A stretch of DNA of 64,000 nucleotides, taken from assembly GCA_045627045.1 (NCBI GenBank), contig JAZQMY010000056.1, positions 47,995 through 111,994 of the forward strand. The letters are read 5' to 3'. The notes beneath the pieces are model-generated. The model searched no databases. It was not told where the DNA came from and saw nothing but the letters and a program-made list of their open reading frames with translations. Positions 2 to 27,228 of this stretch are shown one piece after another. Both the position numbers and the translations under genes were made by a program. Position 1 is the stretch's first letter. Every line of letters begins with the position of its first letter. Origin of the DNA: Clostridia bacterium (GTDB lineage: Bacteria; Bacillota; Clostridia; HGM11327).

Positions 2-2485
2 ACATATAAGGCGCAGTGGGTTGAAACTGTCGAACTGGCAGACTATACAATCGTTTTCTGGGGACAGAATGCTAATGATGATGAATACTCATATCTCTAC
101 TCAAGAGGTGCTTTCGGCAGTGTTGGTGATTCTGTAACATGGAATGAAAATCTACCTATTTGTAAATACAATCACGTACACGATGATAGTTGTTATCAGT
201 TGACTTGCGGCTATACGGAAGAGCATACACATTCGGATCAGTGCGGATTGGATTGTAAGCATACTCATACCGCGGAATGCTATGGTGGCATAACAAAAGC
301 AACCTTAAAGAGTGGCGCAATAACTGCTTTTTCAAACTTAGAAATAGACGGAATAAAAGGATTAAAGTCTGGATATATTTATCAATTTAAATGTCAAGGA
401 ACTAAACATGGTGAGGAGGAAGGATATTTTCTCTATTGGGATGGAAGTTGGTATAATGCTTCACAAAATGATATTGACGGAAACTCCAAAGACCATTCAG
501 AAGGAAACTATGGAGAAGGGAACCATATAATTTTTTGGAATCATGATGAAGTAGATGTTTACAAGGCAAAGTTAAACTGTACTCACACTTCTCACGATGA
601 AGTTTGCTACAACTGTGGTAAACAGCAACATACTCATACAGCAATTGGTGGTAGCTGCTACAGTTTGATTTGCGGCGCGGATACTCATACTCATTCAAGC
701 AATTGCTATATGGGTTCTCTTGCACCTGATTCATCGCTCTGGGTATTTGATCACAGCGATACAGAAGTAGTCAAGCCGGATAAGAGCACGGTAATAAATG
801 TTTACTTCAACAGAAAAGAGTTTACGTTGACATTCAAATCGTCAGGGGGCTCTACTTATGGCACGATAACTGACCGTTGGGGCGCAGATATCAGCGAAGA
901 ATATGAAGGTATACGTCAGAGAAGCGGAGTGATTTCTTGGCATGCTGGTAGATCACCGAGTAGGCAGTACACCAACTACGTTGGCATAATGCCTAAATAT
1001 AATGAGACCTACACTGCTCACAGTCAATCGTCAGGAAATAATACGATGTCTTATTATGCAAAGGATCTAAATGGAAATGATCAGCTGATGTTTACGGTTA
1101 AAGCTGATTTCAGCGGATACAGTGTAACAAAAGAAGACAGATATGAATTTGAAGGCTTTACATGTAATGAGAGCCGAGGAACGCAAAACGGTGAAAGCTG
1201 TGTCGGCGCAAAATTCTATTATGACCGTAACTCCTACGATCTTATCTTTTATTCAGCAAGTCATCAGACACCTGACCGAACAGAGAGTGTATTGTTTGAA
1301 GACAACCTTGGCAAATATGAATATAATAATCCGCAGATGCCTGAAGACATTGAAGAAGGTTCAGTGTTTGTAGGTTGGTATCTTAACCCGGAGTGCACGG
1401 GCGAGCAGTATGACTTTGCCGCACACACTATGCCGGCAAACAATATAGCAGTATATGCAAAGTGGGTTCCCGGTCTCTACAAGGTTGAGACATTCACGGA
1501 TTCAACACTTTCTACTCCTTATACTTACTCCGGATATAACGGTGTACAGAAGGATATCGAGAAATATACGCTTGCAAATGCGGTTACTAATCCGAAGGTC
1601 GCAGGTCAGGTGTTCGTAGGTTGGTTCTATGAGGAAGACGGAGCAGAGAAGCCGTTCTCATTCACAATGCCTATCACGAAGGACTACAAGCTTTACCCGA
1701 AGTATTCCACAAATGCACTTGTAAACTATACTGTTCATTATTATAAGGCCGGCACAACCGAGAAGGTTGCAGACGATGTCACAAGAGCGGAGCAGATAGG
1801 CAAGACGGTAACAGAGAAGGCGAAGGTCGGAAATGAGCTTAATCTTGTTGGCAATAATTATAACGGATATTTCCCGGACAAGACAAGCACAAGCATCGTT
1901 CTTTCGGAAGAAAATATGGAAATCATATTCTACTACACAGAGGGAACGAATGTGCCTTACACTGTAAAGTATCAGGATGCCAATGGTAATGACCTGATCG
2001 CTCCTGTGAATAAGACAACAAACTATTCTGTAGTTGTTGAGACATACGAGACGATTGAAGGCTATACGCCGAGAAATTATTCGATTCAGTCGGATATTTT
2101 AAGTAACGGCACAACGGTTATCACGTTCATTTATGACAGGAAGCAGACAAATCTGACAATCACGAAGTCGGGCATTGCTGCCGAAGATCAGGATATGATA
2201 TGTATTTTCAATATCAAAGGCGTTGAGTCTGATGCAGATACCTGCGATATTGATATTACTGTTACAATAACAGGCAATTCAAGCATTACGATCAAGGATA
2301 TTCCTGTAGGACAGTATGTTATTACAGAAAATTCTGCTTGGTCGTGGCGTTATCAGCCGGACGAAGCTTCAAAGTCCATAATCGCAACATCTAATGGAAC
2401 AAACACTGTAGCTTTTGTCAATACAAAGACAAATAACAATTGGCTTGACGATAATACGAGTGTAAAGAATGTTTTTAATGGCTGA
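2..2485 (+). CDS. Large cell-surface adhesin-like protein, 5' partial (open frame continues to the window start; ORF track Met at 200 is internal). N-terminal Cys/His-rich repeats, two Listeria-Bacteroides (Flg_new-like) repeats, two MucBP/Ig-like modules, Cna-B-like C-terminus; no LPXTG.
   Basis: Frame 2 is open from nt 2 to the stop at 2485. Repeated motif C-x-x-C-G...HTHT/HTHS...C-Y at least 4 times. 'VFVGWYLNPE...VYAKWVP' and 'QVFVGWFYEEDG...YKLYPKY' match the Listeria-Bacteroides repeat signature. 'IKDIPVGQYVITENSA' resembles Cna-B/prealbumin-like pilin domains. Ends 32 nt before the first TasA-like gene. Confidence 0.6.
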   Translation, partial: TYKAQWVETVELADYTIVFWGQNANDDEYSYLYSRGAFGSVGDSVTWNENLPICKYNHVHDDSCYQLTCGYTEEHTHSDQCGLDCKHTHTAECYGGITKATLKSGAITAFSNLEIDGIKGLKSGYIYQFKCQGTKHGEEEGYFLYWDGSWYNASQNDIDGNSKDHSEGNYGEGNHIIFWNHDEVDVYKAKLNCTHTSHDEVCYNCGKQQHTHTAIGGSCYSLICGADTHTHSSNCYMGSLAPDSSLWVFDHSDTEVVKPDKSTVINVYFNRKEFTLTFKSSGGSTYGTITDRWGADISEEYEGIRQRSGVISWHAGRSPSRQYTNYVGIMPKYNETYTAHSQSSGNNTMSYYAKDLNGNDQLMFTVKADFSGYSVTKEDRYEFEGFTCNESRGTQNGESCVGAKFYYDRNSYDLIFYSASHQTPDRTESVLFEDNLGKYEYNNPQMPEDIEEGSVFVGWYLNPECTGEQYDFAAHTMPANNIAVYAKWVPGLYKVETFTDSTLSTPYTYSGYNGVQKDIEKYTLANAVTNPKVAGQVFVGWFYEEDGAEKPFSFTMPITKDYKLYPKYSTNALVNYTVHYYKAGTTEKVADDVTRAEQIGKTVTEKAKVGNELNLVGNNYNGYFPDKTSTSIVLSEENMEIIFYYTEGTNVPYTVKYQDANGNDLIAPVNKTTNYSVVVETYETIEGYTPRNYSIQSDILSNGTTVITFIYDRKQTNLTITKSGIAAEDQDMICIFNIKGVESDADTCDIDITVTITGNSSITIKDIPVGQYVITENSAWSWRYQPDEASKSIIATSNGTNTVAFVNTKTNNNWLDDNTSVKNVFNG

Positions 2486-2517
2486 TTAACCGAAATTGAA
2501 AGGGAGGAATTGAAACC

Positions 2518-3054
2518 TTGGAGAAAATGAAACAAAAAAACACGAAGAGACTTATTCTGCTTACAGTGTTGCTTTGCTTTTCTGCGGTAACGGTTCTCGG
2601 TACGTTTGCATACATAATTACTTCAACTGGGGCATTGACGAACATCTTCGTCCCCGGCAAAGTTGATGATGAAATCGTGGAAACGTTCGAGAATAATATA
2701 AAATCCGATATTCAGGTAAAGAACACGGGCAATGTTGATGCCTTCGTCCGTGTGAACCTCGTTGCTTATTGGCAGGATGCAGAGGGAAACGTTACCGGTA
2801 TTTCAGCAGCAGTGCCGGAATTCACGCTCGGAAGCGGCTGGGCAAAGGGAAGCGACGGCTTCTATTACTATAAGTCAGCCGTAAAGCCGAATGAGCTGAC
2901 AACAGACCTTCTTGCAGATGGCCAGACGATCGTTCTTACTGGGGACGAAAACGGCAACAAAATGGTCGTTGAGGTGCTTGCACAGGCTATTCAGGCTGAA
3001 CCTATTTCGGCTGTGGCTGATGCATGGGGAGTAAACCCTGCATCATTACAGTAA
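2518..3054 (+). CDS. TasA/camelysin-family-like secreted protein with SipW-cognate-type signal peptide (paralog 1, 178 aa; TTG start at 2518 or ATG at 2527)
   Basis: N-terminus: K-rich stretch, hydrophobic core, 'GTFAYIITSTGALTNIF', resembling the TasA 'AAFNDIKS' SipW-cognate signal region. RBS AGGGAGG at 2502-2508. C-terminal 'VLAQAIQAEP..ADAW' motif shared with paralogs 2-5. Confidence 0.55.
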   Translation: MEKMKQKNTKRLILLTVLLCFSAVTVLGTFAYIITSTGALTNIFVPGKVDDEIVETFENNIKSDIQVKNTGNVDAFVRVNLVAYWQDAEGNVTGISAAVPEFTLGSGWAKGSDGFYYYKSAVKPNELTTDLLADGQTIVLTGDENGNKMVVEVLAQAIQAEPISAVADAWGVNPASLQ

Positions 3055-3056
3055 AA

Positions 3057-3611
3057 ATGAGCAAAACGAAAACTGCTTTAGCAAAAATCTGGTCGGCCGT
3101 AACGTGGGTTATAGTAGTGTTGGCAATATTGCTTGCACTCCTTCTCATTGGCACAAGGCTTATCGGCATCACGCCTTATGCGGTGCTTTCCGGATCAATG
3201 GAGCCGACGTACATGACCGGCTCGCTGATTTATGTCAAGAAGGTTGATTGCTCCACTCTCACGGTGGGCGATCCGATAACGTTCATGCTGAACGAAAAAA
3301 CGGTTGCTACTCACAGAATAATTGAGATCATCCCTGATGAAAACGACCCGACGGTGTTCCGCTTCTTCACGAAGGGCGACGCCAATGAGAATCCCGACGG
3401 AAGCTCGGTTCACAGCAACAACGTAATCGGCAAACCGATCTTCACAATTCCGTATCTCGGATACGTTTCGAATTTTATTTCGAATCCTCCGGGAATGTAC
3501 CTCGCAATAGGCGCAGGTGCAATATTGATAATACTGGTTTTCCTTCCCGATCTTTTCAAAGAAGAAGAGGATAAAGACGATGTCAGGGGAAAACATGAAA
3601 AAGTCGATTAA
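3057..3611 (+). CDS. sipW: Signal peptidase I, SipW-type (archaeal/ER-type), 184 aa; alternative overlapping ATG at 3024
   Basis: N-terminal TM segment, then the catalytic-Ser box 'LSGSMEPTYMTGSLIYVKK' and the 'TKGDANENPD' box typical of SipW-like type I signal peptidases. Embedded in a cluster of SipW-cognate signal-peptide proteins. Confidence 0.8.
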   Translation: MSKTKTALAKIWSAVTWVIVVLAILLALLLIGTRLIGITPYAVLSGSMEPTYMTGSLIYVKKVDCSTLTVGDPITFMLNEKTVATHRIIEIIPDENDPTVFRFFTKGDANENPDGSSVHSNNVIGKPIFTIPYLGYVSNFISNPPGMYLAIGAGAILIILVFLPDLFKEEEDKDDVRGKHEKVD

Positions 3612-3649: not shown

Positions 3650-4309
3650 ATGAAGACAAGAACAAAGACATTGCTTCTGCTTGTTTGCGCTGTACTGCTT
3701 GTTGCCACATCTGTAATGGGCACACTTGCTTACCTCACATCAAAGACAGAAGAAGTAAAGAACACATTCACAATTGGTAAAGTTGCAATCACTCTCGACG
3801 AAACAAAAGTCGGAGAAGACGGCAGAATCCCGAAAGATGACAATAACACACAGATAATCGAAAAGGTTACTGCTAACGAATACCACATCATTCCGGGCAA
3901 GACTTTCGACAAGGATCCTACAATCCATGTTGATGAGAAGAGCGAAGACTGCTGGGTATTTGCAAAGATTATTGTAAACAACAAGGCTGATCTTGATGCT
4001 ATTTTTGCAAAGTACTCTCTCAAAATTGGTGATGTTGTAGGCGGTATCAATTCAAATCTTGACGTTATTACTGACGGCAAGGCAAACAGCGATACAAGGG
4101 AATACCTCGTTGCTGTAAAGAGTATCTGCAAAGCTAAGGACGAAATCAAGATTTTTGAGACGATCACTATCCCCGGAGACCTCACAAACGAAGAAATCGA
4201 GTCTCTTTCTGATCTTGAGATTGACATATCTGCTTATGCTATCCAGGCTGAGGGATTTGATGATTACACTGCTGCATGGACAGCTCTTGAAGCACAGATG
4301 ACAAAGTAA
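3650..4309 (+). CDS. TasA/camelysin-family-like secreted protein, SipW-cognate signal peptide (paralog 2, 219 aa)
   Basis: 'MGTLAYLTSKTEEVKNTFTIGKV' signal/cleavage region. C-terminal 'ISAYAIQAEGFDDYTAAWTALEA'. RBS AAGGAGG upstream. Confidence 0.6.
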   Translation: MKTRTKTLLLLVCAVLLVATSVMGTLAYLTSKTEEVKNTFTIGKVAITLDETKVGEDGRIPKDDNNTQIIEKVTANEYHIIPGKTFDKDPTIHVDEKSEDCWVFAKIIVNNKADLDAIFAKYSLKIGDVVGGINSNLDVITDGKANSDTREYLVAVKSICKAKDEIKIFETITIPGDLTNEEIESLSDLEIDISAYAIQAEGFDDYTAAWTALEAQMTK

Positions 4310-4358: not shown

Positions 4359-4889
4359 ATGAAGAAAAAGATTTTGGCAGTTGTAATTGCCGCTGTTCTT
4401 GTTCTAGGCTGCTGCATCGGCGGAACGATTGCTTGGTTGATCGACAAAACAGAAAACGTTGTGAACACATTCACACCGAGTGATATCAACATCGAGCTTA
4501 CTGAGTCAAATAACCTTGATCTTAAGATGGTTCCGGGCAAGGAACTCGTCAAGGATCCTAAGGTTACAGTAAAGGCTAACTCAGAAAAATGCTGGGTATT
4601 CGTTAAGGTAGAGAAGGGCAATAATCCCGACTACTTCCTTACATACGCTATTGCTGAAGGATGGACAGAGCTTGAAACGGGCGTTTACTATCGCGAAGTT
4701 TCTTCCTCAACTTCTGATCAGGTATTCAGCGTACTCGAGGATGATAAGGTTACAGTTAAGTCAGAAGTAACAAAGGCTGATCTTACAGCACAGAACTTTG
4801 AAAAACCTACACTTACATTCAAGGCTTATGCCATCCAGAAGGAAGGCTTCGAAACAGCAGCTGCTGCTTGGGCAGAAGCTAAAAAGTAA
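4359..4889 (+). CDS. TasA/camelysin-family-like secreted protein, SipW-cognate signal peptide (paralog 3, 176 aa)
   Basis: 'GGTIAWLIDKTENVVNTFTPSDI'. C-terminal 'FKAYAIQKEGFETAAAAWAEAKK'. Confidence 0.6.
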   Translation: MKKKILAVVIAAVLVLGCCIGGTIAWLIDKTENVVNTFTPSDINIELTESNNLDLKMVPGKELVKDPKVTVKANSEKCWVFVKVEKGNNPDYFLTYAIAEGWTELETGVYYREVSSSTSDQVFSVLEDDKVTVKSEVTKADLTAQNFEKPTLTFKAYAIQKEGFETAAAAWAEAKK

Positions 4890-4937: not shown

Positions 4938-5741
4938 ATGAAAAAGAAAATTATCACACTCGCTCTCGTAGCAGTTATTGCTCTTGCAGCAATTACCGGT
5001 GCATCTCTCGCTTACTTCACAGATAAAGACGAGATGACAAACACATTCACAATGGGCAACGTTGACATCACTCTCAAAGAGTATGGTAAGAACACAGACG
5101 GCGAAATCGCTCCGTTCAGTGATTCTGTAAATGAGCTTATCCCGGGCATTTCTGTTCAGAAGATTGCCACAATCACAAACACAGGCAAGAACGATGCTTA
5201 TGTATGGGCAGAAATCCTTGTTCCTAAGGCTCTCGTTTCAGCTCTTGCTCCGGCAAATGAAACAGACAGCGCTCTCCATTACAATACATACGGCGCTTTC
5301 GCAACAGAATACTTTGGCAGATATCAGCAGACTCCTGTTAACGACGGTATCCTCGTTAACGGTGCTATCAGCATTGACACAAACTGCGAATACGTTGACG
5401 TAGCAGAAGAGAACACATGGTCAAACCCTGTTGTTGCAGGTGAAGTAACAGTTGAAGACGTTGAATATGTTGTATTCCTCACAAAGATGCAGAGCATCCT
5501 TCCTGTAGGCAAGACAACACTTCCTTTCCTCCGCGGCGTTTACATGGACAACGATGTTGATGCAGCAAGAGATGAGAGCGGCGCAATCATCGAAGGCACA
5601 TATGTAATTCCTCAGCAGACAGCTAACGGCGTTGAGTTCGTTAACTACGACGGTTCTTGGGATGTAATCGTAAGAGCATATGCTATCCAGTCAGCCGGCT
5701 TTGATACGGTTGATGATGCTTACGCTGCATACAACAAATAA
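4938..5741 (+). CDS. TasA/camelysin-family-like secreted protein, SipW-cognate signal peptide (paralog 4, 267 aa)
   Basis: 'GASLAYFTDKDEMTNTFTMGNV'. 'NTGKNDAYVWAEILVP' resembles the TasA/M73 core. C-terminal 'VRAYAIQSAGFDTVDDAYAAY'. Strong RBS AAAGGAG. Confidence 0.65.
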   Translation: MKKKIITLALVAVIALAAITGASLAYFTDKDEMTNTFTMGNVDITLKEYGKNTDGEIAPFSDSVNELIPGISVQKIATITNTGKNDAYVWAEILVPKALVSALAPANETDSALHYNTYGAFATEYFGRYQQTPVNDGILVNGAISIDTNCEYVDVAEENTWSNPVVAGEVTVEDVEYVVFLTKMQSILPVGKTTLPFLRGVYMDNDVDAARDESGAIIEGTYVIPQQTANGVEFVNYDGSWDVIVRAYAIQSAGFDTVDDAYAAYNK

Positions 5742-5806: not shown

Positions 5807-5850
5807 TTTTGTTTACAAAAATAAGTATTTTATTGAATGGAGAAAATTCT

Positions 5851-6417
5851 ATGAAAAAGAAAATATTGATCGCAGCACTGATTGTTTGCCTTCTTGCTGT
5901 TGCAGCATACGGTACTCTTGCGTACTTCACGTCAGAGGACACAACAGAGAATATCATCAAGTCAGGCAACCTCAAGGTAAAGCTCATCGAAACCGAAATC
6001 GACGATAATGGCGAGGAAATCCCGTACGTAAATGAGAAAATCGGTATTATGCCCGGAACGACGATATCAAAGATAGTCAAGGCAGAGAACGTAGGTAGAC
6101 ATGACGCTTATGTTCGTATCAGACTTACAAACGTTATTACTCTTGCAGACGGCACAGAGGATAATGACGAGAACGGCTACGTTAAGTATTCAATCGACGA
6201 GGAAAACTGGACATATGCTGACGGCTGGTACTATTATAATACTGCTCTTGAGGCAGGCAAGACTTCCGAAGCTCTCCTTTCCGAAGTAATTTTCTCAATT
6301 GAAACAGATAACTTATATCAGGACAGCGTTCTCTCGATCAATGTTGAGCTTCAGGCAGTTCAGGTTCAGAACAACGGAGCTGACGTATTTGAAGCCGCAG
6401 GCTGGCCGGCAGTCTGA
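5851..6417 (+). CDS. TasA/camelysin-family-like secreted protein, SipW-cognate signal peptide (paralog 5, 188 aa; start chosen inside ORF-track ORF 5680..6417)
   Basis: ATG at 5851 is preceded by TGGAGA and begins 'MKKKILIAALIVCLLAVAAYGTLAYFTSEDTTENIIKSGNL'. 'NVGRHDAYVRIRLTN' parallels paralog 4. C-terminal 'LQAVQVQNNGADVFEAAGW'. Confidence 0.6.
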   Translation: MKKKILIAALIVCLLAVAAYGTLAYFTSEDTTENIIKSGNLKVKLIETEIDDNGEEIPYVNEKIGIMPGTTISKIVKAENVGRHDAYVRIRLTNVITLADGTEDNDENGYVKYSIDEENWTYADGWYYYNTALEAGKTSEALLSEVIFSIETDNLYQDSVLSINVELQAVQVQNNGADVFEAAGWPAV

Positions 6418-6445: not shown

Positions 6446-7081
6446 ATGAACAGGACTAAAAAGTCAGTTCTCAGCATTGTACTTGTATTCGTATTCATGT
6501 TTATGATGTCTGCGATTGCATTTGCTGAGACAAACGTTACATATGACGGAGATGCACAGCATTTCGTTTTTGCTCCGGAAAATCTTTTTGAGAACTTTGA
6601 TGACGTAATGCCGGGTGATGTGATTTCACAGGAAATCAAAATCAACAACAAAGCTTCCAATAAGGTTGATGTTAAGGTTTACCTTAAATGCGAGCCGATC
6701 GACAGTGAATATGCGGATTTCCTTTCAAATCTTCATCTTACCGTAACTCAGGTAGGAAAGTCAAAGCATTTTGATGCTCCTGCAGACCAGACGGACGGAC
6801 TTACTGATTTTGCATATCTCGGCACGATCACATCCGGCGGAAAAGAAACGCTGATGGTAACTCTTGAGGTACCTATCGATCTTCCGAACGAGTTTCAGGA
6901 TTCGTTTGGCAAGGTAAGCTGGACATTCAAGGTCGAAGAGCTTGAAAACGAAGCGCCTATAACAGGTGAAAACAATTTGATTTATATCCTTTGCGGAGTA
7001 TGTGTTCTTGCGGCTGCATTGCTTGTAGTATTCATCATTCTTCGCAAAAAGGACAAAGAAAATGACAAAAAGACTGATTGA
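6446..7081 (+). CDS. Secreted, C-terminally anchored protein in the TasA locus: Sec-type signal peptide (AFA-ET), beta-rich domain, then 'APITGENN', a hydrophobic segment and an RKKDK tail (cell-wall sorting-signal-like)
   Basis: N-terminal 'MNRTKKSVLSIVLVFVFMFMMSAIAFA'. C-terminal 'PITGENNLIYILCGVCVLAAALLVVFIILRKKDKENDKKTD' has the tripartite architecture of sortase substrates, with a PxTG-like motif. Confidence 0.5.
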   Translation: MNRTKKSVLSIVLVFVFMFMMSAIAFAETNVTYDGDAQHFVFAPENLFENFDDVMPGDVISQEIKINNKASNKVDVKVYLKCEPIDSEYADFLSNLHLTVTQVGKSKHFDAPADQTDGLTDFAYLGTITSGGKETLMVTLEVPIDLPNEFQDSFGKVSWTFKVEELENEAPITGENNLIYILCGVCVLAAALLVVFIILRKKDKENDKKTD

Positions 7082-7089
7082 TACAATGA

Positions 7090-7120
7090 AGCTCTGATTA
7101 TTCAGGGCTTTTTGTTTTTT
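7090..7120 (+). terminator. Intrinsic terminator after the TasA-like locus
   Basis: AGCTCTGA-ttat-TCAGGGCT hairpin (one G-U wobble) followed by TTTTGTTTTTT. Confidence 0.5.
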
Positions 7121-7208
7121 GTGTTTAATTTTATTATAATTTTGTGCTTGAAAAATAAACTGTTATATGGTAAAATTAACATGTTATTTTTTGAAATCCG
7201 GAGGGAAT

Positions 7209-9206
7209 ATGGGTATCAGAGTTAATAATAACGGTTTTGAATATGCCGAAAAAGAACTATTGAAGTTTATATCATGCTATGAAGTACCTGAGCATTTTGA
7301 TAATAAGACGGTCACTCTTTCAGTTGAAGATACAACAGAGGATTTTTGCTTCGGTGTTAGACCGGGCGATAACGGAATCATAATTTACGGCGGAAGCAGG
7401 TCAGCAGTGCTTTGCGGCGTGTACAAAGCGCTCGAAGCAGGCGGAATCAGATTCGGTCTCGGGGAACAGGTGAGACCGGAGACGTTTGACTTCGAAGCAT
7501 TCTTCGGACTGAATGTTTTTGTGCATCCGAAGGTAAGAAACAGAGGAATCAGACAGCATATCAATTTTACTATGGACATCTCTTCCTATGCGCTTGCCGA
7601 AGCTGAAGAATACATAAGGGATCTTGCGAGACTCAAGTTCAATGCGATAACCTTTCACAGTTATAACACGATGTGGACAAATTGCGAAGAGAACGGATAT
7701 ATAGGCAGATTTTTCTATAATATAGAGAACACTGTTCCGAAGGTCGACCTTGCAAATCCTGTAAACAATAAAAAATACTATTGCATTCCCGAAATTGAGG
7801 ATGTTTTTGAAGACGATGCAAAGAGAAGCGAAGCGGCACATAATTGGCTTTCAGAGGTAATGAAAACCGCAAAGGAATGCATGATGAAGGTAACGCTTTC
7901 GGTTGAAATTCCTTTTACTTCGGATGGTTCGGATAAGGAAAAGTACGTTTCATTTCTCAGAAGAACGTGCAGTGATTATCCTATGATAGATGTACTTGAG
8001 CTAATCAGCCATGAAACCGGCGGTAGCTGCGGGGATCGCTTCGATGAAAAAGAGGGTACAAAATGGGCTGTTGATCTTCTTTCGGATAAGATCCTTTCCG
8101 ACAACGGAAAGCCTGAATATATAGGCGAGAAGTATTCGAATGACCTTTGCGATGAGCTTGATCACCTGAAGAGACATCTTATTGCATACTCTCTTAAAGA
8201 TGAGTGGGCAAAGGGCCTTGAAAAGGTGCCTGAAATCAGAATGGGCTTTTATTCAGTGATAGGCGACACGAACAAAATCCTGAGACCTATTCACAATAAG
8301 GTAGTTCCGGAGGGCGTAAAGAAATGCTGGCTTCCTGCACACTCCTCAATGTATGTTGCCGATGCGCTGAAATCAGCAGGCTTCAATGACAAGGACTTTG
8401 CCGATACAATGATTTATTCGTGGGCAGAGTTTGACGGAAGCATGTATGTGACTCAGGTCGAGACAAAGGGAATAGAAAAGCTTATCAGCCTGTCCAAAAC
8501 GAGGGATATGTACGGAATTTGTCTCAATCATTGGAGAAACGCAGAGAACAGACTCACTATTGAGTATGCATCAGAAGCATTTATCCGTCCTGTGAGCGAG
8601 GTTAAGTATTTCTTTGAATTTGCAGAGAAGTACGGCATCAGAAGGAAGGCTGAATTTGCTTCGGCAATGAACAGACTTTCTATTCTCGATCTTTTCACAA
8701 GGGATGAGCTCTTCAATGTAGGCTTCTGCCATCTCGGATGCTGGACACCGTGGCAGGGAGTATCCTACGCAACAAGATTCGATGAAAAGAAGCTTGTATG
8801 GGCAGGAAATGAGTTCAAGGAGCTTTCGGAAAGCTTCGGAAAGCTTGTAAACGACGATAACCTTAAGTCAGGCAATAATTTCCTTACATTGATGGAGAAC
8901 AGATGCAAGACAAGCTTCATTCATATTCAGTGCTTCCGTTCGCTCTATCCTGTAAAGGATATGAAGCCGACGGATGATCCCGAAGAAAGGGAAATTATTA
9001 AGAATGCTTTTGCAAAAGCAAGACAATATGCCCTTGAATATCTTTATACATATTCAGAACTTATGCCGGACAGAGGAGCAGAGGGACTTGTAACAAGTTA
9101 TAATCAGGTAGTTTTGAATTACCTTGATATAAAAGAAGAATATTATTTAGGAAAAGAGACAGAAAATCAGAAATCAGAAGATGAGGAACCACCGCTTCCG
9201 GTATGA
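7209..9206 (+). CDS. Hypothetical cytoplasmic protein, 665 aa (start at the ATG after GGAGGG; ORF-track start 7167 is likely too early)
   Basis: Long ORF with RBS GGAGGG at 7199-7204. No signal peptide and no motif I can assign. Confidence 0.5.
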   Translation: MGIRVNNNGFEYAEKELLKFISCYEVPEHFDNKTVTLSVEDTTEDFCFGVRPGDNGIIIYGGSRSAVLCGVYKALEAGGIRFGLGEQVRPETFDFEAFFGLNVFVHPKVRNRGIRQHINFTMDISSYALAEAEEYIRDLARLKFNAITFHSYNTMWTNCEENGYIGRFFYNIENTVPKVDLANPVNNKKYYCIPEIEDVFEDDAKRSEAAHNWLSEVMKTAKECMMKVTLSVEIPFTSDGSDKEKYVSFLRRTCSDYPMIDVLELISHETGGSCGDRFDEKEGTKWAVDLLSDKILSDNGKPEYIGEKYSNDLCDELDHLKRHLIAYSLKDEWAKGLEKVPEIRMGFYSVIGDTNKILRPIHNKVVPEGVKKCWLPAHSSMYVADALKSAGFNDKDFADTMIYSWAEFDGSMYVTQVETKGIEKLISLSKTRDMYGICLNHWRNAENRLTIEYASEAFIRPVSEVKYFFEFAEKYGIRRKAEFASAMNRLSILDLFTRDELFNVGFCHLGCWTPWQGVSYATRFDEKKLVWAGNEFKELSESFGKLVNDDNLKSGNNFLTLMENRCKTSFIHIQCFRSLYPVKDMKPTDDPEEREIIKNAFAKARQYALEYLYTYSELMPDRGAEGLVTSYNQVVLNYLDIKEEYYLGKETENQKSEDEEPPLPV

Positions 9207-9228
9207 TTTTCAAAAATGGTGATAGAAA

Positions 9229-10482
9229 ATGAATCAGATGACAAGAAAAAACAAGATTTTGATCTGCCTTGCGGGATGCATTGTATATTTTACGAGTTAT
9301 CTCACACGCTACGGATTTAATGCTCTTTTAAACCAGATTATTACATCAGGGACATTACCGAAAACGATAACGGCAGGCATTTCAACCGGTGCTTTTATCA
9401 CATACGGTCTTGGTCAGATAGTAATGGGAATGATCTCAGACAGATTTGATCCCAAGAAAATGATTGTTCTCGGACTTTCCGGAACAGCAATCTGTAATCT
9501 CGGAATGTTCTTTATCCAAAAGCCGATTGTGCTTGCGGTAATATGGTGTGTCAACGGATGCTTCCAGGCGATGCTTTGGCCTCCGCTTGTAAGAATAATG
9601 GCGGAGCTGTATGATTCTCACGGCTATAAGAAGTCAATTGAATACATATCTTATGCAAGTGCTTTAGGCAAAATGTCCGTTTATGTTCTTGCTGCATTCT
9701 TTATTTTTATTGGTCTTTGGAGATCCACTTTTATCTTCACCGCGGGAGTGGCAATAATAGCAGCCATTATCTGGATAAGGCTTATGAATACTGTGCCTGA
9801 AGCAAGGGCATGTGGAAAATCAGATATTGCATCAGATAATGAGGACAAAAAGGAAAACGATAAACATGAAAGCAAAAAAGCGCAGCCTTTCCCCAAAAAG
9901 CTTCTTATTATGTTTGTGATCCCGGTAGGTGCGGCTATTATAGTGCAGGGAATGCTGAGAGAAGGTATTTCAACGTGGATGCCGAGCTATATGACAGAGG
10001 TTCTCGGACTTGAACCGTCGCAATCTGCGATAGTATCAATAATCCTTCCTGTTTTTTCACTCCTTGGAATAAAACTTTCTGCTATTCTGATAAAAAAGAT
10101 GACGGAGTTGAGAGCGGCATGGATAATGTTCGGAATCACGACTATTCTTTGCGGCACAATGGTTTTTGCAACCGGAAGAAGCACGATAGCTATGGCAGCA
10201 CTTATGGCTTGCTCTGCAGGTTGTGTTGATTGTATCAATACTCTCCTTATTAACTATCTACCGAGCAGATTCGTCAAGCTGGGCAGAGCTGCAGGTACTG
10301 CAGGTCTTTTCAATGCATTCACATATGTCGGAAGTGCAGCATCTATTTACGGGGTTGCAGTTGTTTCGGATGCTTTCGGCTGGACCACGACCCTGATTGT
10401 ATGGAGTGTGGCATCCATTATTGGTATGGCAGTAACATTTGTACTTAATGCAACAAAGACAGATGTAAAATTTTTTGATTAA
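9229..10482 (+). CDS. MFS transporter, probably organophosphate:phosphate antiporter family (GlpT/UhpT-like)
   Basis: About 12 predicted TM segments. MFS signature 'GMISDRFDPKK'. 'NGCFQAMLWPPLVRIMAELY' resembles the GlpT 'GWFQGMGWPPCGRTMVHWW' region. Central cytoplasmic loop is rich in K/E/D. Confidence 0.6.
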   Translation: MNQMTRKNKILICLAGCIVYFTSYLTRYGFNALLNQIITSGTLPKTITAGISTGAFITYGLGQIVMGMISDRFDPKKMIVLGLSGTAICNLGMFFIQKPIVLAVIWCVNGCFQAMLWPPLVRIMAELYDSHGYKKSIEYISYASALGKMSVYVLAAFFIFIGLWRSTFIFTAGVAIIAAIIWIRLMNTVPEARACGKSDIASDNEDKKENDKHESKKAQPFPKKLLIMFVIPVGAAIIVQGMLREGISTWMPSYMTEVLGLEPSQSAIVSIILPVFSLLGIKLSAILIKKMTELRAAWIMFGITTILCGTMVFATGRSTIAMAALMACSAGCVDCINTLLINYLPSRFVKLGRAAGTAGLFNAFTYVGSAASIYGVAVVSDAFGWTTTLIVWSVASIIGMAVTFVLNATKTDVKFFD

Positions 10483-10498
10483 TAAAAAATATCCGCGA

Positions 10499-10527
10499 TT
10501 GACATATAATGTGAATTGGAATATAAT
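10499..10527 (+). promoter_or_regulatory. Sigma-A-type promoter upstream of the phosphatase-like gene pair
   Basis: TTGACA, 17 nt spacer, TATAAT. Confidence 0.5.
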
Positions 10528-10580
10528 TATTAATAGGCAAAGCCTTGAACATTTTTTGAACTTTTGAAAGGTATAATTTT

Positions 10581-11396
10581 ATGGAAAGAAAATATAAGAG
10601 AGTAATATTGCTCGGTGTTGACGGAGCAGGTATTTTTTTCAGACAGGCAAGCACGCCGTTTATAGATAAGATAATGGAGAATGGATCTCAAACGTATGAT
10701 GGACTTACCGCTCTTCCGACAATAAGCGGTGAATGCTGGGGAGCGATGCTTCATGGTGTTGATCCGGAGGTACACAAACTCACAAATTCTATTGTTTCAT
10801 CACAGAAATATGACCAAAACTCACCGTATCCTTCATTCTTCAGAGTAATCAGAGAGAATTATCCTGATGCAGTGCTTGCTTCATTCAGCTGTTGGAGCCC
10901 GATTAATTTCGGAATAATTGAGGACAATCTAGGAGTATATATGGATTCTGCCGAAGATGGAGAACTTACTGAAAAGATTATTGATTACATCAATAAAAAT
11001 GACTTTGATACGATGTTTGTTCAGTTCGACAGCGTTGATGGCGCAGGACATAGATTCGGCTACGGAGACGAGAAGTATCTTGAACAGCTTTCGCTTGTTG
11101 ACAGCTACATAGGAAGGATTGCAGAGACCCTCAAAGCACGCGGTATGTATGAAGATTCACTCATCATAGTTACGGCAGACCATGGCGGTACTGTTTTCCA
11201 TGGCCATGGCGGCGATACTCCGGAGGAAAAGACAATCTATATCGGCGTATGCGGAAAGAACGTAAAGAAGGGCGTTATGGCAAACGGAGAACAGGTTTCG
11301 GTCAAGGCTATTCCGGCAATAGTTCTTTATGCTATGGGCCTTGAAGTTCCAAAGACGTGGACAGGAAAGGTTCCGGAAGGCATTTTTGAGGACTGA
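10581..11396 (+). CDS. Alkaline-phosphatase-superfamily metalloenzyme (nucleotide pyrophosphatase/phosphodiesterase or phosphomutase-like core), 271 aa
   Basis: 'ILLGVDGAG', 'TALPTISGECWGAMLHG', 'FDSVDGAGHRFGY', 'TADHGGT..HGHGGD' are metal-ligand-like blocks of the AlkP superfamily. Paralog of the next gene. Confidence 0.55.
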   Translation: MERKYKRVILLGVDGAGIFFRQASTPFIDKIMENGSQTYDGLTALPTISGECWGAMLHGVDPEVHKLTNSIVSSQKYDQNSPYPSFFRVIRENYPDAVLASFSCWSPINFGIIEDNLGVYMDSAEDGELTEKIIDYINKNDFDTMFVQFDSVDGAGHRFGYGDEKYLEQLSLVDSYIGRIAETLKARGMYEDSLIIVTADHGGTVFHGHGGDTPEEKTIYIGVCGKNVKKGVMANGEQVSVKAIPAIVLYAMGLEVPKTWTGKVPEGIFED

Positions 11397-11399
11397 TGG

Positions 11400-12896
11400 A
11401 TGAACAGACTTTATAAAAGAATAGTATTGTTTGGTGTTGACGGTGCTGGTGCATTTTTCCGTGAGGCAGACACCCCGAATATTGACAGAATATTCAAAAA
11501 CGGTTCCCGTACATATGACGGGATAACTGCCCTTCCTTCGATAAGCGCTGAGTGCTGGGGATCAATGCTCCACGGAGTTGATCCTTCTGCTCACAAAATG
11601 ACAAACGGCTCAATACAAGTGAAACAGGCAATGAGCGATTCGCGCTATCCGTCTTTTTTCAGAGTGATAAGAGAGAATTATCCAGATGCGGTGCTTGCTT
11701 CATTTACCACATGGTCGGCGATAAACAGAGGAATAATCGAAAACGACATCGGCGTTATCAAAGTGAACGGAGACGAAAGAACAGTCACAGATAAAGCTGT
11801 TGAATTTGTCAGCAATAATGAGTTCGATCTTCTTTTCGTCATGTATGAGGAGGTCGATCTGAAGGGACATCATAATGGCTATGGCTCACAGAGACATCTT
11901 GAGGAGATAACTCAAAGCGACAGATATATCGGAGAGATATACGATGCTCTTGAAAAAAGAGGAATGGTTGAGGATACTCTCTTTATTGTATCGCCTGATC
12001 ATGGCGGCACGATTTACGGCAATCATGGCGGAGATACAAAGGAAGAGATGCAGATAATGATAGCAGTTGCCGGAAAAGGAGTAATCAATGGAACAATGGG
12101 CGGGGATGAGCCTGTTTATGTAAAATCCGTTGCGGCTATTATTTTATACGGTATGGGACTGGGTATTCCGGAGACGTGGACGGCGAATGTTCCGTTGAAT
12201 TTGTTTGAAAACTATAATGAACAGGAGCGAATAAGAGTGGAGGACAGACAGGAAGTCACACGGGATATACTCAATGACGGGCTTATCAGAACGCCTATCT
12301 GGTTTGAAGGCTCAATGCTCGAATATATGAATCATGATATAGTTCAGACAGTGGGTGAAATCACTTTTCATCCGGGAATACACAGAGAGTCTGCTGACTT
12401 ATCAAAAGGATATGTTCTTTTGAAAAGATACAAGGTTGGTATTGACAGCTTTGCGGTTGGAATAAGGATAAAGTACACTGAATTCAATCACGACGAAGTC
12501 CTTTTTTCAAATTCAAGAGCAAAAGATCCGAATTTTAATGGATTTAATGCTATTCTGACAAAAGGCGGAGTAACGTTCAGGATAGGAAACGGCAGATACG
12601 GTCAGAAATTTGACTTTGATTTTGAACACAAACCAAATGAATGGTTCAGTTTTATTGTTTCAATTGACAGAGATAATCAGAAGATCTCAGCTTTTTTTAA
12701 TTATGAGCTTATCACAGAGTATGCCATAAATGAAGAATTCCGTACTTCTACGCTTGATTCGCTTGATTTCGGAATAGGAATGGACGGTATGGAGGAGTAT
12801 CCTTACCATCTAGAAGCACTTCTTTCTGAACTTTATATATTCAGAATAGCGGTAAACGAAGCTGATATGATAAAAATCAAGGAACAGTACGATTGA
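11400..12896 (+). CDS. Alkaline-phosphatase-superfamily metalloenzyme paralog fused to a C-terminal LamG/concanavalin-like jelly-roll domain, 498 aa
   Basis: The first 270 aa are collinear with the preceding gene ('VLFGVDGAG', 'SPDHGGT', 'HGGDTKEE'). The C-terminal 220 aa ('WFSFIVSIDRDNQKISAFFNYELI') look LamG-like. Starts 3 nt after the upstream stop. Confidence 0.55.
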   Translation: MNRLYKRIVLFGVDGAGAFFREADTPNIDRIFKNGSRTYDGITALPSISAECWGSMLHGVDPSAHKMTNGSIQVKQAMSDSRYPSFFRVIRENYPDAVLASFTTWSAINRGIIENDIGVIKVNGDERTVTDKAVEFVSNNEFDLLFVMYEEVDLKGHHNGYGSQRHLEEITQSDRYIGEIYDALEKRGMVEDTLFIVSPDHGGTIYGNHGGDTKEEMQIMIAVAGKGVINGTMGGDEPVYVKSVAAIILYGMGLGIPETWTANVPLNLFENYNEQERIRVEDRQEVTRDILNDGLIRTPIWFEGSMLEYMNHDIVQTVGEITFHPGIHRESADLSKGYVLLKRYKVGIDSFAVGIRIKYTEFNHDEVLFSNSRAKDPNFNGFNAILTKGGVTFRIGNGRYGQKFDFDFEHKPNEWFSFIVSIDRDNQKISAFFNYELITEYAINEEFRTSTLDSLDFGIGMDGMEEYPYHLEALLSELYIFRIAVNEADMIKIKEQYD

Positions 12897-13465
12897 CGAT
12901 GATGAAGCAAATGAAAGATTATTTAAGAAAAAATATCGCGAATATACTCACGGCATCCAGATTTTTCATTGCAATGGCGTTGCTGATACTGTATTTTACA
13001 AATTCGGAGAATTGGTTCTGGAGATGTCTTGCATTATTTTTGCTTGGCTGCCTGACGGATATTTTTGACGGTATTGTTGCAAGAAAAACGGATTCTGTAA
13101 GCAATACCGGAAAGATACTCGATCCGTTCTGCGATAAGGCGATGATGCTGTGTATGCTTTTGGTGCTTGCACTTGGAGGATACGTTTATATGTGGGCATT
13201 TGTCCTTCTGGCGATAAAAGAGCTTCTTATGATAATCGGTTCATTATTCTTCCTCAATAAAAAGATCGTAGTGATGTCGAATTGGTATGGAAAGTCAGCA
13301 ACGATACTTTTGAGTTTTTCTGTTGTGCTTGCGGTAGCTGGATTAAGACCGTTCAGCGATTGGGCACTTGCAGTATCGCTTATGTGGACGTTTGCTACTA
13401 TGGTGCAGTATGCGACTTTGTATTATAAGCAGATAAAAGAAAACAAAAGAACTGAAAACAATTGA
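12893..13465 (+). CDS. CDP-alcohol phosphatidyltransferase family protein (PgsA-like), 190 aa
   Basis: Signature D-G-x2-A-R-x8-G-x3-D-x3-D is seen as 'DIFDGIVARKTDSVSNTGKILDPFCDKA'. Multi-TM protein. The ATGA start overlaps the upstream stop, indicating translational coupling. Confidence 0.75.
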   Translation: MTMMKQMKDYLRKNIANILTASRFFIAMALLILYFTNSENWFWRCLALFLLGCLTDIFDGIVARKTDSVSNTGKILDPFCDKAMMLCMLLVLALGGYVYMWAFVLLAIKELLMIIGSLFFLNKKIVVMSNWYGKSATILLSFSVVLAVAGLRPFSDWALAVSLMWTFATMVQYATLYYKQIKENKRTENN

Positions 13466-13494
13466 TTTTTCAGCAGATAATGACAGGAAAAGAC

Positions 13495-13523
13495 TTGCAA
13501 TTTTTGAACTTTAAGTGTAAAAT
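13495..13523 (+). promoter_or_regulatory. Sigma-A-type promoter for the isomerase/epimerase gene
   Basis: TTGCAA, 17 nt spacer, TAAAAT; then RBS AGGAGG. Confidence 0.45.
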
Positions 13524-13556
13524 ATATATAAGATTTATTCTTAGGAGGAATATAAT

Positions 13557-14525
13557 ATGAAATTAGGTGTAGTAGGTGCTCTGTTCAGCAACAGACCCCT
13601 CAAGGATGCTCTTGATTACCTCAAGACACTCGGTGTTCAGATGATAGAAATCGGTACGGGCGGCTTCCCGGGCGATGCACATTGCAAACCCGCAGAGCTT
13701 CTTGCCGATGAAAAGAAACTTGAAGAATTCAAGAAAACGATAGCTGATTCAGGCATTGAAATAAGCGCATTTGCTTGCCACGGCAACCCTGTTCACCCTG
13801 ACAAGGAAAAGGCTGCAGAATTCTGCACAGCTTTCAACAATACTGTTCTTCTCGCAGAGAAGATGGGAATCGACAGAATCATTACATTCTCAGGCTGCCC
13901 GGGCGGCTCAAAGGATGACAAGACTCCGAACTGGGTAACATGCCCTTGGCCGGATGATTTCCTTTCTATCCTTGATTATCAGTGGAATGAGGTTCTCGTT
14001 CCTTACTGGAAGGAAGCTGTAAAGTTCGCTGAAGCTCACGGCATCAAGAAGATCGCTCTTGAAATGCACCCCGGCTTCTGCGTTTACAACCCGGAGACAC
14101 TTCTCAAGCTCCGTAAGGCTGTAGGAAGCGATATAATCGGCGCAAACTTTGACCCGAGCCATTTGTTCTGGCAGGGAATTGAGCCTGTTGCAGCTATCAG
14201 AGAGCTCGGCGATGCTATCCATTACGTTCATGCAAAGGATACAAGAATTGATGCTATCAACACAGCTAAGTACGGCGTTCTTGATACAAAGCATTATACA
14301 GACGAAATCCATCGTTCATGGATATTCCGTTCAGTAGGCTATGGCCACGATATGCAGGTTTGGAGAGATATCGTAAGCAACCTCAAGCTTGTAGGCTATG
14401 ATGACGTTCTCAGCATTGAGCATGAGGACAGCCTTATGTCGCCGACTGAGGGCTTTGAAAAGGCAGTTAAGTTCCTTAAGGATGCCATCATTTCAGAGTC
14501 AGCAGGCGAGATCTGGTGGGCTTGA
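13557..14525 (+). CDS. Sugar phosphate isomerase/epimerase (xylose-isomerase-like TIM barrel) family protein
   Basis: 322 aa. 'MIEIGTGGFPGDAHC', 'ALEMHPGF', 'HAKD' and 'SIEHED' are typical of the AP-endonuclease-2/xylose-isomerase-like TIM barrel fold. Confidence 0.65.
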   Translation: MKLGVVGALFSNRPLKDALDYLKTLGVQMIEIGTGGFPGDAHCKPAELLADEKKLEEFKKTIADSGIEISAFACHGNPVHPDKEKAAEFCTAFNNTVLLAEKMGIDRIITFSGCPGGSKDDKTPNWVTCPWPDDFLSILDYQWNEVLVPYWKEAVKFAEAHGIKKIALEMHPGFCVYNPETLLKLRKAVGSDIIGANFDPSHLFWQGIEPVAAIRELGDAIHYVHAKDTRIDAINTAKYGVLDTKHYTDEIHRSWIFRSVGYGHDMQVWRDIVSNLKLVGYDDVLSIEHEDSLMSPTEGFEKAVKFLKDAIISESAGEIWWA

Positions 14526-25649: not shown

Positions 25650-27227
25650 TTATTCCTGTGTGTCTGAAACGGCGTCAAGCTCGTCCTTTCCTTCAAAGCT
25701 CATAAGGCTGAGCATCTGCTTTGATGTTATAACGCCTTCTTTGTGGAGCTCCATAGCGATTTCATTGTTGTATGTGACCTCGTACGGATTTTTCTTCTGT
25801 GCGTGAACCTTGATATCAAAATCGTATTTTGAATGATCGGAAAATTCCGCAGGATCAAAATAATATGACTGCTTTGCTCCCTTGCCTGTGATTCTTACAA
25901 CACGGGTGTTGTCATAAAACTGTGCAACACGGGAGAGCATCATTTTTACGATTTCGGTGTAGTGATCGTATATTCTGCCGACGATGTTTCTTGTTCGCTT
26001 GCTTGCGGCATTCTGAAGAGCGAGAATGGCACTTGCGGCGGTGATTGATGATGTGGCTTCGCCTCTTGCAAGCTCTGTCTGACCTGAATCCTTCTTGAGC
26101 ATATCAATCATGAACGAGAGATGTTCCTGAACCATGGGCGATATTGAAGCCGGCTGGAACCAGCGGATGCTTCTGTCGGAGATATCGGAGCCTTCGAGAA
26201 CGTCCTCATCCCAATCGGCAAGCTTTTCCTTGGGAATATTGCAGCGTGAGTCCTTGAGAAGACGCATCTTGCCTGACATAAACGAGTTCTTGAGTATGAT
26301 TCTGTCGAGCATATCAATGTATTCCTGCTCGGGCTTGAATACGTCGATCATTCCCATGCCGATAGGTGAATCCTCAAGTTCATAAAGCGGGATCACCACG
26401 AACGGATAAAGACCGTCGGAATAAATGCCTGTCTGAGCAGTCTCTTCGTTTTCCTCGCTCCATTCAAGAAGAACGCCTCCTGCAATTTTGGCCATATGAA
26501 CCACCGTGCTCATTGAGGAGGGATTATACTTCTTGTACCAGCGCTCAATAAGAAGAATCCCGTTTTCACTGTCTGAAATCATTCCGGAGCTCTGAAGCCA
26601 CGGCTTGTCCGAGAATTTATCTGCTTTTTCGGGATAGCGCTCACGGAACCACTCCTTATCGTGAAAGCTGAATCTGAAAACATTTCTTCCGTTCTGGATG
26701 TCGTCATAAGCGGTATCCCAAAGAAAATATCTCATATCGCACGGAGAGACATCAATATCTCCGTAGCCTCCGTAAAGAGAGCTGTTCCAGAAGACGGAGA
26801 AGCAGCAGGCACCGTTCTTCAGGAGACGAAGAGTCTCGCTTCTGTACTTTCCTGCAAAGGAGCATCTCTCAAGAGCTGAATTGACTATTGAGGAGAGCGT
26901 ACCTGCAAGCTCTTCATCCTCCTTGCCGTAGGGGAGAAGCACTGCTTCGGGGTAGTTGTCCATAAGCTCTGAATGAACGTTTTCAATGGAACTGAAGAGA
27001 ACGGGAATGCTCGGATAAGGCTCGTTCGGGAGCTTTTCTTTTGAATGCCAGTGATCGGAACGCCAGAAATTCTCGTTTTCCTTGCATCTGGCACGAAAGC
27101 CGGATGTTTTTTCGTAGTACTGTCTGAACAGTCTTTCGCTTTCGTCGATAAAAGCTTCCCGGACTGCTGTTGTCGGATAAATCATTTTGTATCCTTTCCT
27201 TTCTTTGTTTATAATATCAAACCGCAT
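25650..27227 (-). CDS. Phage portal protein (SPP1 gp6-like)
   Basis: 525 aa, matching portal size, directly downstream of the large terminase with a 1-nt gap. Acidic C-terminus. Confidence 0.6.
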   Translation of the reverse strand: MRFDIINKERKGYKMIYPTTAVREAFIDESERLFRQYYEKTSGFRARCKENENFWRSDHWHSKEKLPNEPYPSIPVLFSSIENVHSELMDNYPEAVLLPYGKEDEELAGTLSSIVNSALERCSFAGKYRSETLRLLKNGACCFSVFWNSSLYGGYGDIDVSPCDMRYFLWDTAYDDIQNGRNVFRFSFHDKEWFRERYPEKADKFSDKPWLQSSGMISDSENGILLIERWYKKYNPSSMSTVVHMAKIAGGVLLEWSEENEETAQTGIYSDGLYPFVVIPLYELEDSPIGMGMIDVFKPEQEYIDMLDRIILKNSFMSGKMRLLKDSRCNIPKEKLADWDEDVLEGSDISDRSIRWFQPASISPMVQEHLSFMIDMLKKDSGQTELARGEATSSITAASAILALQNAASKRTRNIVGRIYDHYTEIVKMMLSRVAQFYDNTRVVRITGKGAKQSYYFDPAEFSDHSKYDFDIKVHAQKKNPYEVTYNNEIAMELHKEGVITSKQMLSLMSFEGKDELDAVSDTQE

Positions 27228-27228
27228 A

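Follow-up and report, generated by a model that had tools for sequence, protein, structure and literature searches.

Does the large gene at the left edge of this locus belong to the fiber operon beside it and, if so, what does its product do there? The question was raised by a 64,000-nucleotide (nt) stretch of a Clostridia bacterium contig (GenBank assembly GCA_045627045.1, contig JAZQMY010000056.1, positions 47,995 to 111,994 of the forward strand; hereafter, the window), in which a sequence-only reading had described a giant adhesin directly upstream of a TasA-like operon and offered it as a tip or anchor protein analogous to TapA. Comparison with related loci showed that the large protein is an integral, conserved member of a SipW/TasA-like cluster. 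On the further proposal, that the fragment encoded here is the adhesin-type large subunit, distal or decorating, of a heteropolymeric SipW-dependent TasA/BsaA-like fiber in gut Oscillospiraceae, we found the evidence about evenly balanced.

The large gene and its homologs

The open reading frame (ORF) at 2..2485 (+ strand, frame 2) comprised 827 codons and a stop (TGA at 2483-2485) and ran off the 5' edge of the window, so that the large frame first noticed there was real and represented the 3' part of an adhesin-like gene. A search of 5.8 billion proteins returned 1,965 relatives, the closest 51-54% identical, for which the sole public name was "uncharacterized repeat protein (TIGR02543 family)". 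Homologs were 1,060-1,250 amino acids (aa) long, with query coverage of 100%; therefore, approximately 270 N-terminal residues lie off the window, and the protein is not giant, as had been supposed. By likeness to these homologs, the fragment appears to be the C-terminal three quarters of a secreted adhesin of approximately 1,100 residues. The N-terminal 270 or so residues of the homologs consisted of a signal peptide, two MucBP-like modules and one Flg_new repeat, and the Cys/His-rich region discussed below lay at approximately residues 300-520 of the full-length protein; its description as N-terminal held within the fragment but not for the whole protein. A metagenome scan with protein-specific peptides for the 5' end of the window copy yielded zero relatives, and exact look-ups of two complete neighboring proteins found no record.

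Genomic context of the large gene

In the window, the large gene was followed, after a 32-nt gap containing a ribosome-binding site (AGGGAGG, 2502..2508, +), by a gene for a small TasA/BsaA-like subunit with a SipW-type signal peptide (2518..3054, +; TIGR04090 E 7e-12, and synteny) and by a gene for a SipW-type signal peptidase (3024..3611, +, likely start ATG 3058; TIGR02228, 109 bits against 51.9; NF046067, 110 bits). Next came four TasA/camelysin-like subunit genes (3650-4309, 4359-4889, 4938-5741 and 5818-6417, all +; Peptidase_M73, TIGR04088/TIGR04090), the products of which carried SipW-type signal peptides and a V-x-N-T-F donor motif, and a gene (6446..7081, +) for a probable wall-anchored base subunit of 211 aa with an ordinary signal peptide and a weak TasA-like core. 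A terminator scan placed an intrinsic terminator with a 10-bp stem and a T-run at 7088..7111 (+), ending the operon, and found none in the 32-nt gap or before 7088. The large gene is probably co-transcribed with the downstream fiber genes.

Related loci were collected from reference genomes and assemblies, and their ORFs were searched with the window proteins; all belonged to uncultured Oscillospiraceae, Ruminococcaceae or "Clostridia" metagenome-assembled genomes. Across about 30 loci, the order was SipW, 3650-like, 4359-like, 4938-like (one to four copies), 5680-like, the large protein, 2518-like and 6446-like. SipW was found in every locus with enough upstream flank, and wherever downstream flank was available, a 2518-like gene lay directly 3' of the large one. 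An order conserved in this many loci indicated that the large protein is therefore a member of the cluster and not a mere neighbor. The original view of an adhesin-type surface protein tied to TasA-like genes was thus upheld, as the SipW/TasA-like cluster was present in every flanked locus and no terminator intervened in the window. The position "directly upstream" of the operon fits the window, where SipW and the TasA/camelysin-like genes lie downstream, but in about 30 loci the large gene was inside the cluster. The window contained the full gene set in rotated form, with the large gene and the 2518 gene before sipW, not between the 5680-like and 6446-like genes.

Another permutation occurred in two Faecousia-type loci (L025 and L027), where sipW came after the 5680-like and 6446-like genes and the large protein had 1,550 aa. 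Three further loci had at first suggested a "split", two-gene design, which was rejected, as the split was produced by frameshifts within a collinear gene (L035 6396-10543, L036 the same, L037 3780-8320). These loci represented two different lineages, and in each the frameshift left the CnaB-like domain and the tail as a separate ORF of 180-212 aa. Pseudogenization, phase variation or assembly error could account for the frameshifts.

Among the closest known counterparts is the sipW-bsaABC locus of Clostridium perfringens, encoding SipW, the TasA-like proteins BsaA and BsaB, and the large accessory protein BsaC with a vWA domain, with an adjoining sortase gene (srtB) and, in other strains, a BsaB variant with LPXTG (PMC7395162, PMC11580942). 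SipW, several TasA-like paralogs and one large secreted protein of non-TasA type are common to both systems, as are a neighboring sortase and a subunit that bears a sorting signal, this subunit being strain-specific in C. perfringens and constant here. The large protein of the present cluster differs from BsaC in lacking vWA and in being built of MucBP-like, Flg_new, Cys/His and CnaB-like modules; the subunit paralogs number five or more as against two, and the taxon is Oscillospiraceae. A preprint reported that TasA-family genes often lie near genes with LPxTG, SpaA, signal-peptidase and sortase domains, and that several TasA-family paralogs per operon suggest heteropolymers (PMC11580942). 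The general kind of system is therefore already recognized, while this cluster and its large protein are undescribed; literature searches on this operon in Oscillospiraceae found nothing relevant.

A parallel with BsaA could also be drawn for the subunits themselves. During polymerization of BsaA, an N-terminal strand (V33, N35, F37) inserts into the next subunit, and the contact is locked by an N35-K74 isopeptide bond catalyzed by E56 (PMC11580942). The donor strand V-x-N-x-F and a conserved Glu and Lys in the acceptor are common to both systems (PMC7395162, PMC11580942). All five SipW-type subunit families of the cluster had V/A-x-N-T-F directly after the signal peptide, an invariant Glu (I-x-L-x-E) about 13 residues past the donor motif, and a Lys after a P-G turn; in subunit alignment A3, N36 and E49 were invariant and K65 was present in 16/17. 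This pattern is compatible with the N-E-K triad of BsaA. The TasA-like subunits would accordingly be expected to polymerize by N-terminal donor-strand exchange, each junction possibly locked by an Asn-Lys bond as in BsaA.

Domain architecture of the large protein

Flg_new (Listeria-Bacteroides) repeats were confirmed by matches above the Pfam and NCBIfam cut-offs (PF09479, 41.6 bits against 27, E 1.4e-10, two stretches; TIGR02543, 24.3 bits against 20.95), the best-scoring repeat lying at aa 450-487 (1349..1462, +) and a second one after it. The remaining C-terminal region was examined by an AlphaFold2 (AF2) model of aa 560-827 (model 2; mean predicted local distance difference test score, pLDDT, 88). 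Two MucBP/MUB-like beta-grasp domains were modeled at aa 573-714 (1718..2143, +) with pLDDT above 90, and Foldseek matched them to YwfG, the MUB type-2 repeat (3i57), Mub-RV (4mt5) and the Ruminococcus gnavus immunoglobulin-binding protein IbpA. The same search returned CnaB-type pilins and tip adhesins (TIE, PitA, Spy0128, BcpA, GBS52 and Cpa). The E values of model 2 matches ranged from about 3e-8 to 2e-4, and the MUB matches had low template-modeling scores, as the query was multi-domain. The MucBP modules noted at the outset were therefore borne out at the level of fold (MUB/MucBP beta-grasp) but not of sequence, as the window protein had no MucBP (PF06458) match at E <= 0.1.

The Cna-B-like domain fared similarly. 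Foldseek, triad conservation and the Pfam assignments of relatives pointed to a CnaB/SpaA (DUF5979/DUF7601)-like pilin-type domain at aa 715-810 (2144..2431, +), while the SpaA sequence match of the window protein was sub-threshold (14.1 bits against 23.1). Relatives of this module carried precomputed PF19407, PF24547 and PF17802 (DUF5979, DUF7601, SpaA) assignments. Within the domain, alignment identified K722 (2165-2167), E776 (2327-2329) and N807 (2420-2422), all on the + strand and invariant in 58/58 homologs and in at least 90% of a divergent set at 25-43% identity, as a candidate for the classical Lys/Glu/Asn triad of an intramolecular isopeptide bond. An alignment-based search with the C-terminal module returned mainly short fragments, and a single-sequence search yielded zero seeds. 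The MucBP-like, Flg_new and CnaB-like modules would together make up a stalk, stabilized by an isopeptide bond.

The C-terminus of the large protein (...WLDDNTSVKNVFNG) lacked an LPXTG-like motif, a hydrophobic segment and a basic tail alike, in agreement with the initial description of a non-LPXTG protein without a sortase signal. No match to TasA/BsaA/camelysin (PF12389, TIGR04090) or to a SipW-type signal peptide (TIGR04088) was obtained in the fragment or in four full-length homologs, and no TasA or camelysin structure was among the top 50 fold matches listed for model 2. The sortase-pilus tip adhesins (PitA, SpaC, Cpa/Spy0125 and RrgA) are alike in their multi-domain architecture ending in CnaB-type isopeptide domains, and such proteins stood near the top of the Foldseek matches to the C-terminal region; they end in LPXTG and are joined by a pilus sortase, whereas the large protein has neither sorting signal nor pilin motif, and its partners are TasA-like. 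Flg_new repeats and MUB-like folds are also held in common with internalin B-repeat/Flg_new (PF09479, TIGR02543) and MucBP/MUB surface proteins, but these family names cover the stalk repeats only and are silent on the Cys/His module, the tail and the fiber context. In its anatomy, the protein was described correctly overall by the sequence-only reading.

The C-terminal tail and the proposed place of the large protein on the fiber

After the CnaB-like domain, the protein ended in a conserved tail (aa 811-827, ...NNNWLDDNTSVKNVFNG; 2432..2482, +), a candidate donor strand by its conservation, pLDDT and matrix score. Residues 814-827 had pLDDT below 50 in the monomer model, although W814 (55/58), L815 (56/58) and N823 (57/58) were highly conserved and all three were retained in at least 90% of sequences even at 25-43% identity. 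The V-K-N-V-F of the window tail (…SVKNVFNG) followed the same pattern as V-K-N-T-F of the 3650 product and V33-x-N35-x-F37 of BsaA. With a weight matrix derived from 110 distinct donor strands, the tail scored as the top of the 821 windows of the protein (12.9 bits). Among 19 divergent superfamily representatives, it came first out of over 1,000 windows in six and was in the top five in eight, with a median rank of 9; examples are …SVTNTFAPN (P0143), …KKNTFTF (P0129) and …SVDNIFDG (P0140). In the 120 closest homologs, where the tail read Y-x-V-N-x-F, only the matrix of the 2518-like family ranked it high (median 3.5; for the remaining four families, 22-119). These comparisons gave moderate support to the tail as a donor-strand mimic filling a free acceptor groove.

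Under this proposal, the disordered tail (W-L-x-x-x-x-S-V-K-N-V-F) would imitate a donor strand and plug into the free groove of a subunit, the likeliest acceptor being the small one always encoded beside the large gene. The large protein would then be carried on the fiber, most likely at its distal end, because a tail occupying the free acceptor groove would put it opposite the wall-anchored base. One protein of the same overall architecture (P0142) ended in VPLTG, a hydrophobic stretch and KKKR instead of the W-L…N-x-F tail, which suggests that a sorting signal and the tail are alternative attachment endings.

The same observations could be read differently. The large protein may be a co-regulated free matrix or wall-associated adhesin, secreted with the fiber and binding either the matrix or ligands of host or bacterial origin without being a subunit, in which case the conserved tail would serve folding, secretion or non-covalent wall or matrix binding. 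The C. perfringens system offers a parallel, in that BsaC leaves the cell as a monomer, and how it connects to BsaA oligomers is not known (PMC11580942); the large protein likewise has no TasA-like domain, and the donor-strand resemblance is weak in close homologs. Against a free adhesin stand the constant position of the 2518-like gene immediately after the large one, the at least 90% conservation of the tail Asn across 25-43% identity, and the rank of the tail as top donor-strand match in 6/19 divergent proteins. We regard this alternative as possible but doubtful.

Wall attachment appeared to reside elsewhere in the cluster. The sorting signal of the 6446-7081 product (APITGEN, a hydrophobic stretch and RKKDK, nt 6953-7078) was conserved across the 6446-like proteins listed as (P)PxTG[D/E] or LIQTGQ, followed by about 20 hydrophobic and then K/R-rich residues. 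Sortase genes accompanied five distinct clusters, adjoining those of L034, L022, L035/36 and L037/38 and lying in the 10-kb flank of L013; none was found in the 64-kb window by phmmer with three cluster-associated sortases. The sorting signal and the nearby sortases indicate that the 6446-like protein is the predicted wall anchor of the system, fixing the fiber to the wall, and that the large protein is unlikely to be an anchor. Of the two roles first offered, the tip or decorating one therefore remained plausible, and the anchor became less likely, as the cluster has its own sorting-signal protein.

These results also bear on the resemblance to TapA. In B. subtilis tapA-sipW-tasA, an accessory gene likewise lies beside sipW in a TasA-fiber operon, and TapA engages TasA by strand complementation (PMC10151520), a type of contact like that suggested above for the tail. 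A TapA-like nucleator or anchor, starting or fixing the fiber at the cell surface instead of forming a tip head, would suit the window, where the large gene precedes sipW as tapA does, and a donor-like tail could equally prime the first subunit. All other loci, however, placed the large gene late, after the shaft subunits, and the large protein lacks any anchor to membrane or wall such as the 6446-like protein carries. TapA is a protein of about 250 aa with an N-terminal strand; the large protein has about 1,100 aa with MucBP, Flg_new and CnaB modules typical of adhesins, its candidate strand lies at the C-terminus, and anchoring falls to a different protein, a sortase substrate. As a homolog of TapA, the large protein can be set aside: no TapA, TasA or Peptidase_M73 signal was found among its Pfam and NCBIfam matches, and its fold matches were sortase-pilin-like, not TasA-like. 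A TapA-like function is distinctly improbable. What endured of the first interpretation was a fiber-operon adhesin without a sorting signal; its giant size, its homology to TapA and its likely anchoring role did not.

Several points nevertheless weigh against placing the large protein on the fiber by its tail. The tie seen between the two is one of co-encoding, and the window order was rotated relative to other loci, with the 5' end of the gene beyond the window. The last domain is a complete fold of sortase-pilin type, not a TasA fold. In the 120 closest homologs, the all-family matrix ranked the tail poorly (median 14-31); because of this rank, we infer the donor-strand role without asserting it. 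The core N-x-F motif is short, such that the resemblance could partly be chance or a generic beta-strand pattern, and the tail could simply pack back onto its own domain. To our knowledge, there is no precedent for a C-terminal strand entering a TasA-type groove. Lastly, sequence and profile searches of the PDB with the TasA-like subunits failed to reach TasA, so the equivalence of their N-E-K residues to those of BsaA is likewise one that we infer.

The Cys/His module and the beta-domain it encloses

The fragment contained 18 Cys and 22 His residues, 12 of each falling within aa 54-93 and aa 193-235. Counted by eye, these two clusters held six units of the form C-x(1-5)-H-x(1,2)-H-x(3-6)-C. 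Cluster 1 (161..280, +; aa 54-93) had three units C-x(1-5)-HxH-x3-C, namely CKYNHVHDDSC, CGYTEEHTHSDQC and CKHTHTAEC, and cluster 2 (578..706, +; aa 193-235), delimited by motif scan, alignment and co-occurrence count, had CTHTSHDEVC, CGKQQHTHTAIGGSC and CGADTHTHSSNC. The regular expression C-x0-6-H-x-H-x2-7-C gave four non-overlapping matches, a number reached by 0/5,000 composition-preserving shuffles, and no tandem repeats were found at the DNA level under the units. Across 61 homologs approximately 48% identical overall, 18 ligand residues were invariant (H58, H60, C64, C69, H77, C81, C85, H87, H89 and C93 in cluster 1; H195, H198, C202, C205, H210, H212, C219 and C224 in cluster 2), and H75 and C193 were kept in 60/61. 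The repeated unit, first reported in at least four copies, is thus present six times and conserved.

Variation at two positions was informative. Most family members lacked C54, the first Cys of unit 1, as well as unit 6 (H229, H231 and C235), while keeping C224. The two features went together (10/10 against 0/92 sequences), the window protein and nine others having both, so that each protein has either 20 or 24 potential ligands, figures that both divide by four. For proteins of the common form, unit 1 of cluster 1, with its three ligands, can be completed by the orphan C224 from cluster 2, an arrangement that would bring the clusters close in space, clamping the base of the domain between them.

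That domain (aa 95-190, GYIY...YFLYWDGSWY; 284..571, +) was small and all-beta in AF2 model 1 (aa 1-443, pLDDT 79), with strands at 125-134, 137-146, 149-153, 158-168 and 181-189, and pLDDT blocks of mostly 86-94 with dips to 71 and 60; short strands were also modeled within the Cys/His clusters. Foldseek on this model matched only beta-grasp and MucBP-type pieces, with no PDB match for the beta-domain or the Cys/His module. A likeness of aa 95-190 (window 284-571) to cold-shock (OB-fold) proteins was considered and rejected, as its scores (NCBIfam cspD E 0.011; PDB 1g6p E 0.076-0.5) were below any threshold. The domain is the probable apical head; as an insertion clamped between the two clusters, it would serve for binding.

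No Pfam, NCBIfam or PDB entry covered the Cys/His repeat, and literature searches on it found nothing relevant. An exhaustive HMMER search detected the module in 56 of 1.84 billion cluster representatives, all large clostridial surface proteins. Long arrays of the unit, with consensus C-G-[KL]-[ET]-E-H-T-H-x-[ED]-x-C-Y and likewise outside every curated family, occurred at the N-terminal (distal) end of three surface proteins (24 units in P0139, 26 in P0176, 15 in P0166), followed by a pAdhesive_15 (ice-binding-like adhesive) domain with Cna_B and LPXTG or by a fibro-slime/PA14 domain.

The most economical reading is that the units are putative Cys2His2 metal knuckles, probably binding zinc, each C-x4-H-x-H-x3-C unit being one such knuckle, because the His residues are as conserved as the Cys residues, the ligands add up in fours, and the habitat is strictly anaerobic. 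Extracellular disulfides are not expected to be stable in strict gut anaerobes. An even number of Cys (10 or 12) would nevertheless let every cysteine pair, and the ten sequences with both C54 and unit 6 may be a single clade, both of which count against the knuckles. The units could instead be disulfide-closed loops, or could capture metal in the manner of streptococcal Pht proteins feeding zinc or nickel uptake, and the distal arrays of 15-26 acidic units do resemble a binding or sequestering surface more than a staple. A pure disulfide model leaves the equally invariant histidines unexplained, and no metal transporter gene was seen in the clusters examined, making this pair of alternatives unlikely. 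Pht proteins and the Zn-dependent G5-E rods of Aap/SasG are generally known for repeated His-containing metal-binding motifs on Gram-positive surface proteins and offer an analogy at most: their motifs are HxxHxH or G5, lack cysteines and have no sequence relationship to the unit described here.

Other features of the window

Past the terminator, 7167-14525 (+) encoded a 679-aa protein without family assignment, followed by a major facilitator superfamily transporter, two alkaline-phosphatase-superfamily phosphodiesterase-like proteins, a CDP-alcohol phosphatidyltransferase and a xylose-isomerase-like TIM-barrel protein; this group may be a cell-envelope phospho-modification cluster. A portal gene of phage P22/SU10 type lay beside a large terminase gene at 25650-28617 (-), in surroundings that were chromosomal (ScpA, class I W/Y tRNA synthetase, UvrD/PcrA-type helicase, LigA, Dxs and RecN-like), and the pair may be what is left of a prophage, or else a small mobile element. 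A 468-aa ORF at 49700-51106 (+) had zero Pfam matches at E <= 0.001. No tRNA or Rfam family reached the gathering threshold in the whole 64-kb window.

Implications for Oscillospiraceae surface structures

Bacillus and Clostridium biofilms have TasA-type fibers as their main protein scaffold, and how these fibers carry cargo or binding specificity is not known. In its fullest form, our proposal is that a non-TasA adhesin is grafted onto a TasA-like fiber by a C-terminal peptide mimicking a donor strand, possibly locked by an intermolecular Asn-Lys isopeptide bond, and that its head is held by an undescribed extracellular Cys2His2 knuckle. That all of these elements hold together is rather unlikely, and we advance the combination tentatively. 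If true, bacteria would have, in addition to sortase and chaperone-usher, a third means of placing a tip adhesin on a fiber. The Cys/His unit is in any case a compact, invariant and unannotated repeat; should it prove to bind metal, the unit would represent a new type of extracellular zinc knuckle, of use in searching for related adhesins. Among gut commensals, the Oscillospiraceae are abundant and for the most part uncultured, with essentially unstudied surface structures, and an operon joining SipW/TasA-like polymerization, a sortase-anchored base and a dedicated adhesin of 1,100 aa provides a concrete system for how such fibers may be anchored and tipped.

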